This document shows, piece after piece, positions 1 through 11,317 of a stretch of 19,945 nucleotides of DNA (position 1 is its first letter; every line of letters starts with the position of its first letter). Source of the DNA: a virus (taxonomy: Duplodnaviria; Heunggongvirae; Uroviricota; Caudoviricetes); IMG/VR virus record IMGVR_UViG_2671180417_000021; one strand, written 5' to 3'. A model generated the notes under the pieces. That model saw only the letters and a list, made by a program, of their open reading frames with translations. It made no database searches and was not told where the DNA came from. Both the position numbers and the translations under genes were made by a program.

Positions 1-726
1 GGTGGCGGCGCTCATGTCAAACTCTCCCTGCATCCAGCACACCGCCAGCAACACATTTTTCGGGTTCTTCTGTAATGCAGCTTTAGTGCGCGCAATCAGG
101 TCCTGATATAACGGTTTACCCACACCCCAGCGTGCCGAATCCTGGCTGGCCCCCGTGTCCGCACTGAATGTCCCCTCCGCGCCCTGGGTAAATGCCGAAC
201 CACCACGACAGCATGGTACCAGCAGGATCCCCGCATTATTCGGGATATACGGGAGCAGTTTTTTGGCAATATGAAGTCCCTGCCCCACACAGCCATACTG
301 ACCTTTGCTCAGATCTGCCCTCGGATGATTCAGCGTACTCATATCCTGCACATCATGCAGGCAGTGGTCAGCCGGGATGATGTCGTTATACGTACAACTC
401 TCTCCACCCGGAGTTACCGTGCTGCGGCGCGCCAGCTGTTTAATGCGCGGATCCGGAGCATCGTAAGAATCCGGTAACGGAAGCCCTTCACCGTAGGCCA
501 TGCCGTTGGACTGTCCGGCAAGCACAACCACGTAGAACCAATCCGGCTCAGATGAAGGGCCGACCTGTGGCTCTCCTTCAATAGCCACCGCCTGCATCAG
601 TGTGTACGGCGTAATGGCAACCGGTCCGCCGTATGGCTGCCAGCCCTCTTTCAGTTTGTGTGTCAGCTTTTCCGCAAGGTCTGACGGCGACGCCGCCCTG
701 ACAACATCATAGTGTTTAAATGCCAT
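1..726 (-). CDS. nanS: NanS-p-like sialate O-acetylesterase, N-terminal 242 codons only (gene runs off the window start)
   Basis: Minus-strand frame is open from ATG at 726-724 (GGAGG 4 nt upstream) to position 1. Translation MAFKHYDVVRAASPSDLAEKLTHKLKEGWQPYGGP... then VVVLAGQSNGMAYG, i.e. a GQSN-type SASA esterase motif after a short N-terminal domain. Absent from the ORF track because it is truncated by the window edge. Family assignment from memory of Stx-phage nanS-p genes. Confidence 0.6.
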   Translation of the reverse strand, partial: MAFKHYDVVRAASPSDLAEKLTHKLKEGWQPYGGPVAITPYTLMQAVAIEGEPQVGPSSEPDWFYVVVLAGQSNGMAYGEGLPLPDSYDAPDPRIKQLARRSTVTPGGESCTYNDIIPADHCLHDVQDMSTLNHPRADLSKGQYGCVGQGLHIAKKLLPYIPNNAGILLVPCCRGGSAFTQGAEGTFSADTGASQDSARWGVGKPLYQDLIARTKAALQKNPKNVLLAVCWMQGEFDMSAAT

Positions 727-920
727 GAATCCTCCCGGCCGGGATAATATTGTGAGTAAAATGAGGAGCGGGCTGAAGTCCGGAAGTTACAGGACAATGG
801 CAGAAGAGAGACAACAGCCCGCAATACGAAAAAGGCCGCGCTATTGCGCAGAGTGATTACTGTCGGATATTATTCGCCAGCTGAAATATTACTTCACGTT
901 TTGTTGTTTATTCCTTGCCG

Positions 921-978
921 CCCGCGTCTCCCAGCGCGGGCTTTTTTTGTCCATAAGAAAGCCCCTCCGGAGAGGGGC
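921..978. terminator. Back-to-back terminator-like hairpins: plus-strand CCCGCG-N8-CGCGGG followed by CTTTTTTT (921-948), and minus-strand GCCCCTC-N4-GAGGGGC followed by TTTCTT (951-978)
   Basis: Perfect GC-rich inverted repeats with flanking T-runs read directly from the sequence. Function as terminators is inferred. Confidence 0.4.
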
Positions 979-1175
979 TGGAGAGTGGCGCTATGTGCCA
1001 TTGCATGGTGCCGGGTGCCTCCCGGTGAATTCAGTACCAGCACCTGAATCCGCGATTATCCCATATACCTACTCGCTGATTGCCCCTCCGCACAGGGGGA
1101 TTCACCATGCCAGTTTCTTTTAACAAACTCCCCGCAAAACAGACAACTGTCAACCGTCTGAATTGTGAGACATTT

Positions 1176-1204
1176 AAAAAAAAGGCCCGCAAAAGCGAGC
1201 CGGG
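1176..1204 (-). terminator. Rho-independent terminator downstream of the tRNA cluster
   Basis: Minus strand reads GGCTCGC-TTTT-GCGGGCC (7-bp stem with one G-U pair) followed by TTTTTTTT, immediately 3' of the tRNA-Arg(UCU) CCA end. Confidence 0.5.
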
Positions 1205-1215
1205 AAAAATAAGTC

Positions 1216-2358: not shown

Positions 2359-2421
2359 GGATTCGAACCAGTGACCGATTGCTTAGAAGGCAATTGCTCT
2401 GTCCGGCTGAGCTAACAACGC
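2359..2421 (-). pseudogene. 3'-truncated copy of tRNA-Arg(UCU); lacks the 3' acceptor strand and CCA, T-stem disrupted
   Basis: Identical to 1230-1292 of the intact copy, but the 3' end is replaced by methyltransferase sequence at the duplication junction. Confidence 0.6.
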
Positions 2422-2434
2422 AGGGTACAGATAA

Positions 2435-2511
2435 TGGACCGCCATCGAGGACTCGAACCCCGCGCAACCAGCTTCGAAGGCTGGCGCTCTATCCCGATGA
2501 GCTAATGGCGG
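2435..2511 (-). tRNA. argN: tRNA-Arg (UCG), second copy
   Basis: Identical to 1306-1382 shifted by 1129 bp. Confidence 0.8.
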
Positions 2512-2520
2512 TATGTGATA

Positions 2521-2596
2521 TGGTGGCCCTTGCTGGATTTGAACCAGCGACCTGGCGATTATGAGTCGCTCGCTCTCACCACTGAGCTAAAGGGCC
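2521..2596 (-). tRNA. ileZ: tRNA-Ile2-like (CAU), second copy
   Basis: Identical to 1392-1467 shifted by 1129 bp. Confidence 0.8.
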
Positions 2597-2645
2597 GCGC
2601 GCAGAATAATAACGTTACGGAATTAATACTGCAATCTCATCCGTT

Positions 2646-3695
2646 TCAAACGATTAAATCCTGAACTTCCCTGACTGTCTGCTCAAAACGTCCGGTCTCC
2701 AGCTCAACACCAATCGCACGACGCCCCAGTGCCATCGCCGCTTTTACCGTTGAACCCGACCCCATGAAAAAATCCGCAACCAGATCACTAGGACGACTAC
2801 TTGCGCTGATTATCTGCTGCAGCATTTCTGCCGGTTTTTCGCACGGATGTTTCCCTGGATAGTACTGCACCGGTTTATACGTCCACACATCGGTGTACGG
2901 CACCTGCACCGTCACACCGAAATACCGCCGCAAATTTTTATATTCACTCAGCAGTTCCGTATACTGCCGGTTCAGCTCACTGTATGTGCTGACCAGCTGG
3001 TGGTGTGGCTTTTCCAGTTCACCCCGCTGATGTTTCTCTTCTGCCACCCGGGCAAACAGCGACTGTAATTTCAGATAATCGCTTTCGTTCGGTAGCTGCC
3101 ACTGACTGGCACTGAACCAGTGCGACACCATGTTTTTCTTTCCTGTGGCATCTGCAATCTGTTTTGCCGTTATCCCCAGAGCAGCACGCGCATCACGAAA
3201 GTAAGAAATCAGCGGGGCCATCACATGCTGTTTCAGTGCACTGCCCTTCGCCTCATCGCCATCATCTTTCGGACGATACGGCCCCTGATAATGTTCCGCG
3301 AACAGAATGCGCTCTGTGGCGGGGAAATACGCCCGCAGGCTTTCCTTGTTGCATCCGTTCCAGCGTCCGGACGGCTTCGCCCAGATAATATGGTTCAGCA
3401 CACTGAAGCGTTCACGCATCATGATTTCGATATCAGATGCCAGGCGATGACCACAGAACAGGTAAAGACTTCCGGCAGGTTTCAGCACCCGCCAGAACTG
3501 CGCCAGACACTGGTCCAGCCACTTCAGGTAATCATCGTCGCCCTTCCACTGGTTATCCCAGCCCTCAGGCTTCACTTTAAAGTACGGCGGGTCCGTGACT
3601 ATCAGGTCAACAGAATTTTCGGGTAACGACCGGATAAATTCCAGGCAGTCGGCGTTGATTAACTCACAACTGGATATTTTTACAGTATTAAGCAT
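2646..3695 (-). CDS. DNA methyltransferase, beta-class N6-adenine/N4-cytosine type (DPPY motif near the N-terminus, FxGxG motif near the C-terminus)
   Basis: 349-aa ORF. LIVTDPPYF (motif IV) precedes ADFFMGSGST (motif I). ATG at 3695-3693. Confidence 0.85.
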   Translation of the reverse strand: MLNTVKISSCELINADCLEFIRSLPENSVDLIVTDPPYFKVKPEGWDNQWKGDDDYLKWLDQCLAQFWRVLKPAGSLYLFCGHRLASDIEIMMRERFSVLNHIIWAKPSGRWNGCNKESLRAYFPATERILFAEHYQGPYRPKDDGDEAKGSALKQHVMAPLISYFRDARAALGITAKQIADATGKKNMVSHWFSASQWQLPNESDYLKLQSLFARVAEEKHQRGELEKPHHQLVSTYSELNRQYTELLSEYKNLRRYFGVTVQVPYTDVWTYKPVQYYPGKHPCEKPAEMLQQIISASSRPSDLVADFFMGSGSTVKAAMALGRRAIGVELETGRFEQTVREVQDLIV

Positions 3696-3859: not shown

Positions 3860-4043
3860 GTCTGTAACAACCGAACTGATAGTCTGCCAGACCCGCCATA
3901 ACCAGCTGGGTCAGTATTAACTGGCAGCGTTCGCGTGAAAGGTAAGTATTCTGCGCAATCTCCCCGACTGTCGCCGGTTCGGTGACGCTCAATTCATTAA
4001 ACACCACTCTGGCGGTTTCGGTCATATCTTGCTGTTTTAGCAT
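3846..4043 (-). CDS. Small hypothetical protein (65 aa), possible winged-helix/HTH fold
   Basis: ORF 3846..4067 trimmed to ATG at 4043 (MLKQQDMTETARVV...), which has AAGGGA 8 nt upstream. The segment ATVGEIAQNTYLSRERCQLILTQLVMAGL is HTH-like. No family recognised. Confidence 0.45.
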   Translation of the reverse strand: MLKQQDMTETARVVFNELSVTEPATVGEIAQNTYLSRERCQLILTQLVMAGLADYQFGCYRRLPQ

Positions 4044-4319: not shown

Positions 4320-4937
4320 TCAATTATCTTCCAGGCCGGATGCTATCAACGAAAGCCTCTCAAAAAACGCTGTAGCAGCCTTGTCCAAAGTTGAATAAGT
4401 ACTGTATTCTCCGTGTTCGGGACCAACCACTACCCATGGTCGTCTTTTTGGGATTCGGGACTTCTCAGAAATCACTGTTCCAGATATACCAATATCAATT
4501 GTTACACCTGTTATTATTTTCTCTTCATCTCTTTCCCTGAACTCAATTGCCATAAATGCCGTTTTTTTTCGTTTCCCGTTTTTAAAAAAATCAAATAAAG
4601 CAAAGCGATGCTCATTAAAATCAACACCCCATCGTCCTTCAGGATAAAGGGCATGAAAGTTGTCATTTACGCTCTGCATCGTCTCATAAGCTTTAACTTC
4701 TAAATCTCCATAGTGCATAGATACCGCGCAGGAGTCACTGGGTAACTGTATTTTCCCAAGATTGAAAACCTTTACTGCTCCAGAACTATGGCATCTTGCC
4801 CGCAATTTATCCCCATTTATACTAATCGGAGAAATATTCCTTAATGTTCCGGGCTGGCTCCCTCCTAAGTAAACGACTGTTAAAGATTGCTTATTTTCAA
4901 TTGCATCAACTAATACATGCTCTACATTTTTATCCAT
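4320..4937 (-). CDS. AT-rich hypothetical protein (205 aa) immediately downstream of Q; cargo (moron) position
   Basis: ORF 4320..4964 trimmed to ATG at 4937 (MDKNVEHVLV...), which has GGGAGG 5 nt upstream; the ATG at 4964 has no SD. Visibly lower GC than neighbours. N-terminal segment VVYLGGSQPGTLRNISPISINGDKLRARCHSSGAVKVFNLGKI is faintly reminiscent of a WYL-type SH3-like barrel (unverified). Confidence 0.6.
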   Translation of the reverse strand: MDKNVEHVLVDAIENKQSLTVVYLGGSQPGTLRNISPISINGDKLRARCHSSGAVKVFNLGKIQLPSDSCAVSMHYGDLEVKAYETMQSVNDNFHALYPEGRWGVDFNEHRFALFDFFKNGKRKKTAFMAIEFRERDEEKIITGVTIDIGISGTVISEKSRIPKRRPWVVVGPEHGEYSTYSTLDKAATAFFERLSLIASGLEDN

Positions 4938-4939
4938 AA

Positions 4940-4974
4940 TAACCTCCCAATGAACAGGTATCATCAGGAGGTTA
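4940..4974 (-). promoter_or_regulatory. SD-sequestering hairpin in the 5' leader of the 4320..4937 ORF
   Basis: mRNA sense reads UAACCUCC-N19-GGAGGUUA-UU-AUG. The 8-nt 3' arm contains the Shine-Dalgarno sequence and is the perfect complement of the 5' arm. Confidence 0.5.
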
Positions 4975-5012
4975 TAATAAAATATGATTATTTACTTTGA
5001 TTGAATTTATTA

Positions 5013-5384
5013 CTATATGTAACAATCAATTTCTAAAGATACCCCCAACATTGCCAGACAACCGTCAATAAACCCTTCAGCTTTCTGCAGTCTGATAACA
5101 ACCTGATTAAGTGATATCCCCAGTTTTACCCCCAACACCCGTAATGTAACCCCATACACATAATACATTTCCAGTAATTCGTATTGATACGGTTCCTTTT
5201 TCTTAAGAACTGTCATCGCAGAGCTAATGATCAGGCCATCGTCATCGCTACATTGCGGGCGGGATTTTACTTTCGAAGGAATTAATCCCTTAAAACCTGC
5301 AGCAACAGATGACCATTCCACATCCTCGTGATTATTTGCCACCCATGCCCCCCAACGTTCAAGAACCATTTGAATATCACGCAT
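5013..5384 (-). CDS. Q: Late-gene antiterminator Q (short, ~125-aa QuuD/phage-82-type family)
   Basis: ORF 5013..5399 starts on TTG; preferred start is ATG at 5384 (MRDIQMVLERWGAW...) with GGAG 7 nt upstream. Size and sequence resemble my recollection of E. coli QuuD. Positioned between the nin-like genes and the late-region cargo. Confidence 0.75.
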   Translation of the reverse strand: MRDIQMVLERWGAWVANNHEDVEWSSVAAGFKGLIPSKVKSRPQCSDDDGLIISSAMTVLKKKEPYQYELLEMYYVYGVTLRVLGVKLGISLNQVVIRLQKAEGFIDGCLAMLGVSLEIDCYI

Positions 5385-5401
5385 CAACTTTCTCCACAAA
5401 A

Positions 5402-10352: not shown

Positions 10353-11317
10353 TTGCGCCCCCTTACCTCTGAAGGGTTCAGCGACAAATTTATGAGACTG
10401 GCCAGCGCCGAAGCATCATTAATATAGTCATATAAGCTAACAGCCAGCGGAGATTCGGCTTTTGCCAACATAGGATAAAGCTGCTGCAGCCAGACCTGAT
10501 GAATTGATGAAATGTAGGAACAGAGAACGCTGGCGTTATGTGCAACGTCGCTCGGTACAGCGGGCTTTGAAAGCTGTTTCTCCATCTGGTTAAAGGCATT
10601 TATGTATGCCTCTTTGAACCGGGCAGCACGTTTACCCGTGAAACCCATAGCAAGAAACGCAAAACCGTCTCGTGTGATTTGATAGCAAGGGAGCTTGCGT
10701 GTACCACCGTTCGGTTGATTTACCGAAATCGATGTCTCCGCAAAATTGCGGGCACAAAACTCTGGGGAACAATCCAGAGTGCGGATCTTTTTCAGCACAT
10801 CGTCGTGACGCTTGGAGAAGAAGTTGGCAACAGCCAAAGAAGTGGTAACGGCCTGGCCGTTGTCAATGGTGATTTCAGGTTGAGTGAGGGCTGGGATCGT
10901 AGCCATGATGGCAGCCTCCGTTGACAGTGAAAAACTTCCACCACCGGAAACGCCAATTTCACTGGTGGTGAACTGGACGGGGTTGGCGTAACCGGCGTCA
11001 ACGGAGACCGGCGCACCTTTCGGTGCCCCCGCCCAGCCCACCATAATCTGGATGTGAGCAAATGCGGACGATAAAAAAGACGCTGGCGCGTCATACATCG
11101 CCGTTGACAATTTCAGGACGCCAATCCCGGCACCCGCTTTATAAGGTGCCTGAGCAGTGTAACGTCCCGGAATTGCAGAATCAATATGCTGGTGGTCCTT
11201 CACACTCAACAAAATCACGCCTGAATTTCCACAAAGGACTAAAGCACTCATGCGGGTAGTCTTTGCGAAGATAGATAACGCGCTGTGTTTCTGGCTCCCA
11301 ACGAATAACATGGACAT
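10349..11317 (-). CDS. rha: Rha-family phage regulatory protein; start uncertain (first ATG 11317, or internal ATG 10906 giving a 185-aa Rha-only product)
   Basis: Rha-type signature in AVTTSLAVANFFSKRHDDVLKKIRTLD...YQITRDGFAFLAMGFTGKRAARFKEAYINAFNQME. Strong GGAGG 8 nt upstream of the internal ATG at 10906. The frame is open a further ~150 codons upstream; the track's start at 11362 is a TTG. Confidence 0.6.
   Translation of the reverse strand: MSMLFVGSQKHSALSIFAKTTRMSALVLCGNSGVILLSVKDHQHIDSAIPGRYTAQAPYKAGAGIGVLKLSTAMYDAPASFLSSAFAHIQIMVGWAGAPKGAPVSVDAGYANPVQFTTSEIGVSGGGSFSLSTEAAIMATIPALTQPEITIDNGQAVTTSLAVANFFSKRHDDVLKKIRTLDCSPEFCARNFAETSISVNQPNGGTRKLPCYQITRDGFAFLAMGFTGKRAARFKEAYINAFNQMEKQLSKPAVPSDVAHNASVLCSYISSIHQVWLQQLYPMLAKAESPLAVSLYDYINDASALASLINLSLNPSEVRGRK

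Follow-up and report, generated by a model that had tools for sequence, protein, structure and literature searches.

The spacer between the tRNA genes and nanS-p in a lambdoid prophage late region as the toxin-free form of a cargo site

Late-region gene order around the spacer

The window analysed here, a stretch of 19,945 nucleotides (IMG/VR record IMGVR_UViG_2671180417_000021), contains a lambdoid prophage region in which the minus strand is the late-gene direction. On this single strand, the antiterminator gene Q is followed by a DNA methylase gene, three tRNA genes resembling ileZ, argN and argO, a spacer and finally nanS-p, inside which the window stops. The placement of Q, ileZ-argN-argO and nanS-p on one strand is that of a 933W-type lambdoid late region.

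The Q gene (5013-5399, minus strand) encodes a protein of 128 aa that matches the Phage_antitermQ profile PF06530 over its whole length (positions 1-118 of 118, E=1.5e-47). A consensus scan for pR' and tR' downstream of Q gave nothing above shuffle expectation, and pR', qut and tR' were not located. The intact copy of the N6/N4 DNA methylase gene (2646-3695, minus strand) was assigned by PF01555 (E=1.5e-43) together with synteny, a methylase being placed between Q and the tRNAs in Stx2_95 and O104:H4 C227-11 as well. Between Q and the methylase gene lies an ORF of 214 aa (4320-4964, minus strand), for which no Pfam or NCBIfam family scored above threshold; Stx2_95 has just a 65-aa ORF there. 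Its start codon and ribosome-binding site are flanked by an 18-nt inverted repeat (4936-4978, 83% complementary). Elsewhere in the window, a C4 antisense RNA (RF01695, 81 bits, 10961-11048, minus strand) adjoins isrK (RF01394, 62 bits, 11073-11149). This pair (10961-11149) is a P1/P7-type c4-ant immunity module, and phage phi296 (L002 88-270) likewise has a C4 and isrK pair, ahead of an anti-repressor Ant gene.

The three tRNA genes were detected by both ARAGORN and Rfam on the minus strand: an ileZ-like tRNA with the anticodon CAT (1392-1467), an argN-like tRNA-Arg(TCG) (1306-1382) and an argO-like tRNA-Arg(TCT) (1216-1292), the latter being the last gene before the cargo slot. The CAT-anticodon tRNA was called tRNA-Met/Ile2 by ARAGORN and scored 72.5 bits with the Rfam tRNA model; it is annotated as tRNA-Ile in the RefSeq entries of matching genomes and as ileZ in 933W. 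Past argO follows the rho-independent terminator of the tRNA operon (1176-1201, minus strand), with a stem at 1184-1201, a T8 run at 1176-1183 and a fold of -14 kcal/mol (z -2.96), which forms the left border of the cargo slot. The same terminator stands upstream of stx in 933W, where the record labels it 'possible rho-independent terminator upstream of the stx genes'.

On the other side of the spacer, the window holds the N-terminal 242 codons of nanS-p (1-726, minus strand), from the ATG at 726-724 to the point where the gene runs off the window. The encoded part contains a DUF1737 domain (E=3.6e-16) and a SASA sialate O-acetylesterase domain (E=8.6e-11) and shares 70.6% amino-acid identity with L0105/nanS-p of 933W. 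The 5' leader (727-835, minus strand) carries the ribosome-binding site GGGAGG at 731-736 and faces, on the opposite strand, part of the Hfq peak EcOnc21 described below. Enclosed by nanS-p and argO, the spacer (727-1215) measures 489 bp rather than the 490 bp given in the first-pass annotation.

The sole unusual feature near the spacer is an imperfect tandem duplication, whose two copies of 1129 bp each (1230-2358 and 2359-3487) differ by eight mismatches that cluster at 2051-2057 and 2124-2133. Duplicated are ileZ and argN together with two-thirds of the methylase gene (its 3' part) and the initial ~63 nt of argO, and a second, partial methylase ORF results. The 3'-truncated argO (Rfam tRNA 36.9 bits, 2356-2414) runs into an internal methylase fragment, a fusion that gives a chimeric ORF of 316 aa (1517-2467). 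None of 5426 complete E. coli genomes contains the duplication junction, and the best genome match is without the duplication, which is either real and private to the strain or an assembly problem.

The cargo slot and its alleles

Comparison of the minus strand of positions 1-1600 with the Stx2a phage Stx2_95 (L001) and with 933W (L003) by blastn resulted in two collinear blocks. The first (window 1600 to 1175; L001 2244-2668, L003 1988-2412) contains the end of the methylase gene, the three tRNAs and 40 bp past argO, and is 92% identical to its counterparts. The second (window 1172 to 17) corresponds to the sequence starting 41-42 bp past the stxB stop codon (L001 4001 onwards, L003 3745 onwards), and the identity of this right flank is ~74% overall. 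Where the two phages carry a stx2 cassette of 1332 bp (L001 2669-4000, L003 2413-3744), consisting of the stx promoter region, stxA, stxB and ~41 bp, only the 2 bp 1173-1174 lie between the blastn breakpoints of the window. This clean junction against 933W and Stx2_95, together with the gene order, bears out the first-pass annotation, which had described a Stx-phage scaffold of Q, tRNAs and nanS-p with the toxin slot empty; the alignment to Stx-phage genomes that it had proposed gave an empty-site junction and no stx remnant.

Across the whole window, tblastn with Stx2A and Stx2B and word-7 blastn of the 933W stx cassette returned chance-level matches only. The longest ORFs in 727-1215 are TTG-started and 58-77 aa in length, none of them stxA-sized, and the earlier statement that the spacer holds no ORF of stxA or stxB size was correct. 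The window is thus without the stxA and stxB genes between the tRNAs or pR' and nanS-p that define a Stx-converting phage. As to target-site duplications or microhomology at the borders of the stx cassette, inspection by eye of 933W revealed just a 5-bp ATCTG repeat, which is too short to interpret.

The empty junction is widespread. Of 5426 complete E. coli genomes, 1023 gave a contiguous match to a junction-centred query of 161 bp, and in many independent ones the match is 100% identical, for example in O104:H4 outbreak strains. A prophage of O104:H4 C227-11, which is without stx, has Q, the methylase and the tRNAs, then a 490-bp spacer, and past it the genes for the SASA esterase, holin and lysozyme.

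Measured in the IMG/VR loci, the argO-to-STnc100-core distance (see below) takes discrete values, each of which marks a class of slot. The largest class, with 22 loci, has a distance of ~184-187 nt and is empty like the window. A distance of ~806 nt goes with a 108-aa ORF without family match, ~880, 952 and 1541-1551 nt with a 143-aa TerB-family protein (PF05099), and 1526-1538 nt with stx2. In the 2914-nt class (L030), the 108-aa ORF is accompanied by an apparent IS, as judged from ORF translations. The 108-aa ORF (MVFSALNIYHSYGVG...) serves as alternative cargo in L005, L025, L092 and others, whose flank is 96.6% identical to the window; a search of Pfam and NCBIfam gave no match for it.

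Most cargos, namely the stx2 cassette and the TerB classes of ~952 and ~1541-1551 nt, begin past the T-run of the tRNA terminator and stop before (TTTT)AAATGTCTCACAATTCAG. The terminator hairpin itself is replaced as well in the ~806-nt class, and in the ~880-nt class the cargo takes the place of the 5' part of STnc100. The motif RTATCYGCG follows the T-run in all cargo-bearing alleles and is lacking in the empty allele, and the near-empty alleles L009 and L116 retain ~40 bp of a TerB-type cargo, from its right end. On the sRNA side, the border of the slot would coincide with the apparent 5' end of the STnc100/EcOnc05 RNA. It is conceivable that the tRNA terminator and the 5' end of the sRNA are fixed recombination borders, which would make the slot a site for swappable cassettes.

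A recent loss of stx, in which the toxin operon of a Stx-converting phage was precisely deleted and the scaffold left behind, would account for a gene order equal to that of Stx2 phages and for breakpoints that match the borders of the stx cassette. The TerB remnants in L009 and L116 imply that deletions at the slot happen, and the absence of the RTATCYGCG motif from the empty allele was also counted in favour of such a loss. We nevertheless consider this scenario very unlikely. At its right junction, the window has TTTTAAATGTCTCAC, a sequence shared with TerB-cargo alleles and other empty ones, where stx2 phages have TAATCTGTGTCAC; since, in addition, the flanks are just 74-92% identical to 933W and Stx2_95, there is no sign of a recent stx loss. 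It is further contradicted by the absence of any stx remnant, by the identical empty junction in the 1023 genomes, including the stx-free C227-11 prophage, and by the spacer of Sakai prophage Sp4, which differs at only 7 of 489 positions. Because the spacer belongs to a very common stx-free lineage and has a right junction of the TerB/empty type, there is also no sign that the phage ever carried stx. With its 489 bp, the spacer shows the cargo site of E. coli lambda-like prophages in its ordinary state without toxin genes. Of the earlier proposal of a stx-negative relative or an empty cargo site, the empty slot stands, and its own counter-scenario proved partly true in that the spacer is the normal intergenic sequence of a common stx-free lineage.

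Small RNAs and hairpins in the spacer

In prophage Sp4 of E. coli O157:H7 Sakai (NC_002695), argO1 ends at 1179668 and the nanS-p-like gene ECs_1088 starts at 1180158, with a spacer of 489 bp in between. The window aligns to Sp4 without gaps, with 8 mismatches in 601 columns (99% identity), 7 of which lie inside the spacer. The coordinates given in Table S2 of Tree et al. (2014, PMC4104026), converted to window positions, place EcOnc05 (~222 nt on the Northern blot) at 970-1078 on the minus strand, and EcOnc08 (874-946) and EcOnc21 (783-868) on the plus strand. The published Northern probes are exact matches in the window, at 1047-1081 for EcOnc05 and at 840-874 for EcOnc08/21/42. By its identity to the Hfq-bound regions and to these probes, the spacer contains the EcOnc05/EcOnc08 dyad. 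According to Tree et al. (2014) and Sy and Tree (2021), eight or more prophages of Sakai have convergent Hfq-sRNA dyads, located between the moron CDS and the downstream ORF: the pair in Sp5 consists of EcOnc27 and AsxR, and similar pairs are present in Sp3, Sp4, Sp9, Sp10, Sp11, Sp15 and Sp17 (Tree et al., 2014).

Five terminator-like sites were counted between 500 and 1600, compared to 1.3 +/- 1.0 in shuffled sequences. The hairpins lie at 1184-1201 with a T8 run (minus strand), 960-979 (minus strand), 920-941 with a T7 run (plus strand) and 836-851 (minus strand); the tRNA terminator and the back-to-back pair were found at the places where the initial reading had put them. The back-to-back hairpins (920-979) are the terminators of two convergent sRNAs. 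The palindrome at 836-851, CTGCGCAATAGCGCGG then CCTTTTTCG, is terminator-like on the late strand (minus), overlaps the -35 element of the antisense promoter, and is kept in AsxR-type loci too.

The minus-strand sRNA gene, EcOnc05 (949 to ~1172), belongs to the STnc100 family (RF02076). The Rfam match covers 949-1139 on the minus strand and the complete model (1-206 of 206) with 139.2 bits, well above the gathering threshold of 47 (E=4e-31). RF02076 is the STnc100/PasD family (Zhu, Shabalina and Storz, 2026, bioRxiv 10.64898/2026.05.13.724894). The extension of the gene at its 5' end follows from the published Northern band of ~222 nt: for an RNA that ends just past the terminator hairpin at 960-979 (minus strand, with UUUCUUAU; 223 bp upstream of the nanS-p ATG), the 5' end would lie near 1172. 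A location upstream of the lysis region and a sialate esterase gene, with an intrinsic terminator at the end, is the known prophage context of STnc100 and is shared by 933W, Stx2_95 and phi296. In 933W, STnc100 lies 75 nt past stxB (L003 3778-3983, 208 bits), and AsxR (RF02703, 88 bits), at 3985-4037, runs towards it from the opposite strand. A consensus scan of the minus strand revealed no promoter for STnc100/EcOnc05, and inspection of a TTGACA at 1148-1153 gave no acceptable -10 partner; the RNA may owe its 5' end to the processing of transcripts that read through. For EcOnc27/sRNA103, the homologue in Sp5, reports are limited to overexpression effects on fimZ and espA. In several IMG/VR loci (L012, L019, L026, L039, L082 and L111), the STnc100 core motif occurs twice, 484 bp apart (for example L026 7041-7549), and here the sRNA module upstream of nanS-p is tandemly duplicated.

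The plus strand carries a predicted sigma-70 promoter at 844-873 (TTGCGC at 844-849, a spacing of 18 nt and TATTAT at 868-873), followed by a predicted late-antisense sRNA of the EcOnc08/EcOnc42 type (879-948). This RNA of 70 nt would have an open 5' region, the terminator at 920-941 and a U7 tail. Its start at A879 was set by applying to the window the rule of AsxR, for which RACE placed the 5' end 6 nt past the -10 element; the resulting RNA coincides with the EcOnc08 Hfq peak (874-946). The gene is convergent to the STnc100-type sRNA at the moron site, has a promoter of its own, and its terminator abuts that of the partner (948/949).

From 120 IMG/VR loci, we obtained 24 distinct versions of the region downstream of STnc100. 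The promoter hexamers and their 18-nt spacing are invariant across these 24 variants, and the sequence between the hexamers and the body of the RNA vary. The AsxR/AgvB/EcOnc03 type has the same scaffold with TTGCGC, 18 nt and TAAAAT, where the type of the window has TATTAT. In single-sequence folds of nine variants of the antisense sRNA, the stem sequences differ, and every one has a perfect G+C stem and a U-tail; RNAalifold on a MAFFT alignment of the nine gave a poor, misaligned consensus. An assignment of the plus-strand sRNA to AsxR or AgvB was considered and rejected: Rfam at E<=10 gave no match to either over 600-1300, while AsxR of 933W reaches 88 bits, the conserved ~42-nt 3' region of AsxR/AgvB (GTATCTCATGC...GCCCGAACCCAYTCGGGC) is absent, and the body and stem sequences differ.

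For the antisense RNA, the length of 70 nt is a predicted one. The EcOnc08/21/42 probe (840-874) lies upstream of the predicted start, and the published band is ~271 nt; since this band was obtained in Sakai with a probe upstream of A879, a longer antisense transcript that reaches into the nanS-p leader or start must exist. Of 5426 complete E. coli genomes, 990 carry the module 840-960, which RefSeq leaves without annotation in them; it was also found in 54 phage records, of which 30 belong to Stx2 phages, and in Stx2_95 itself. It is conceivable, and we put it forward only tentatively, that the RNA at 879-948 is a third, functionally distinct 'allele' of the AsxR/AgvB locus, which would keep the promoter scaffold and the terminator position but have a different body and a G/U-rich 5' seed (UUUUGUUGUUUAUU). 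It might regulate or sponge other RNAs in trans or, as the ~271-nt form, restrain nanS-p as an antisense RNA in cis. If true, this third allele would be present in ~18% of complete E. coli genomes and in some Stx2 phages.

The first-pass annotation had suggested that the structured spacer may control Q-dependent read-through, and the spacer would then be mainly a cis-acting leader in which stacked terminators gate nanS-p and the lysis genes to Q-modified polymerase. Three terminator-like hairpins (1184-1201, 960-979 and 836-851) indeed face the late direction within 489 bp, the leader 727-860 is more stably folded than shuffled sequences (z -3.2), and the record of 933W labels the homologous elements as terminators upstream of stx. 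Of these three hairpins, however, two mark where transcripts with independent documentation end (those of the tRNA operon and of EcOnc05/STnc100), the third overlaps the antisense -35 element, and the fourth (920-941) points the wrong way for gating. Furthermore, the cis-regulatory families of Rfam gave no match in the spacer. In lambda and 933W, antitermination is set up at qut beside pR', several kb upstream of the spacer. Because this takes place there and not at the spacer, the gating function loses further ground, and we regard it as very improbable. What stands of the suggestion is that Q-modified polymerase must pass the hairpins; as the main role of the spacer it was not upheld, since the hairpins are terminators of the tRNA operon and of sRNAs.

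A model of the spacer and its relation to known systems

Taken together, the spacer is very probably an unoccupied lambdoid moron site that is made up almost entirely of small, already-described transcription units. In this arrangement, the ileZ-argN-argO operon stops at its own intrinsic terminator (1176-1201). Past the T-run, where Stx2 phages hold pStx-stxAB and further phages a TerB-like or another cargo, this phage directly enters the gene of the STnc100-family Hfq-binding sRNA EcOnc05, which would extend on the late strand from ~1172 to 949 and has its end at the hairpin 960-979. The second sRNA, EcOnc08, would run towards it from the promoter at 844-873, as an RNA of ~879-948 with its end hairpin at 920-941. 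By analogy with the Hfq data from Sakai, the tRNAs and both sRNAs would be expressed from their own promoters in the lysogen, including the host of the window, while late transcription is off. Upon induction, Q-modified polymerase starting downstream of Q would read through 1184-1201, 960-979 and possibly 836-851, and would reach nanS-p and the lysis genes, as expected from the biology of lambda, 933W and H-19B. The hairpins would in this case be obstacles overridden by Q, and a dedicated switch does not seem to be the best reading of them.

An assembly artefact, in which a collapsed or chimeric join lost the cargo, might be suspected from the adjoining 1129-bp duplication that is absent from other genomes, but is hardly credible, since the 161 bp around the junction recur without a mismatch in many independent complete genomes and the entire spacer matches Sakai Sp4.

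The feature is real, already known and ordinary: published accounts cover the moron site, its stx-free state and the dyad of convergent Hfq sRNAs (Tree et al., 2014; Sy and Tree, 2021; Zhu et al., 2026). As a discovery, the locus carries little weight, with a near-identical one mapped experimentally in Sakai Sp4. Its use lies in annotation, as RefSeq is without the antisense module and phages annotated with PHANOTATE place spurious small ORFs over the sRNAs. In vB_EcoP_phi296 (L002 4356-4786), three small minus-strand CDSs named 'hypothetical protein' lie over the spacer with STnc100 and the antisense sRNA; these are probably spurious calls over non-coding RNA genes.

Among the closest known systems is Sp4 (Tree et al., 2014), whose spacer has the same length and which agrees with the window in the tRNAs, the unoccupied junction, the sRNA of the STnc100 type, the sRNA convergent to it and the start of nanS-p. 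It differs upstream of the tRNAs, where Sp4 has a gene for an AraC-family regulator and the window the DNA methylase gene with its partial duplicate. The comparison with 933W/Sp5 revealed a shared order, with the tRNA terminator, an STnc100-family sRNA (EcOnc27/sRNA103) and then a short convergent sRNA, the same back-to-back terminators, a TTGCGC -35 element inside the same palindrome, and nanS-p (L0105). In contrast to the window, 933W has the stx2 cassette of 1332 bp past the tRNA terminator and ahead of the sRNA, and its convergent sRNA is AsxR instead of the EcOnc08 type.

With respect to the two sRNAs, the minus-strand RNA matches the STnc100/PasD covariance model over its full length, but its centre (~1040-1075) is shorter and diverged, which is reflected in 139 bits versus 208 bits for the 933W copy. 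The plus-strand sRNA occupies the position that AsxR has in 933W. It shares with AsxR and AgvB (RF02703, RF02702) the convergent position, the TTGCGC-18-TAWWAT scaffold, the small size and an architecture in which a terminator hairpin and U-tail come after an open 5' region, Hfq binding being that of the Sp4 homologue, whereas similarity to AsxR/AgvB in sequence or to their models is lacking, and EcOnc42/21/08 are listed without known target in the 2021 review. Finally, the insertion site for lambdoid 'morons' lies downstream of pR', a position for which Tree et al. (2014) refer to Juhala et al. (2000). Like this site, the slot accepts various cargos between conserved flanks, namely stx2, a TerB-family gene, the 108-aa ORF and an IS-disrupted version, and in the window it is unoccupied.
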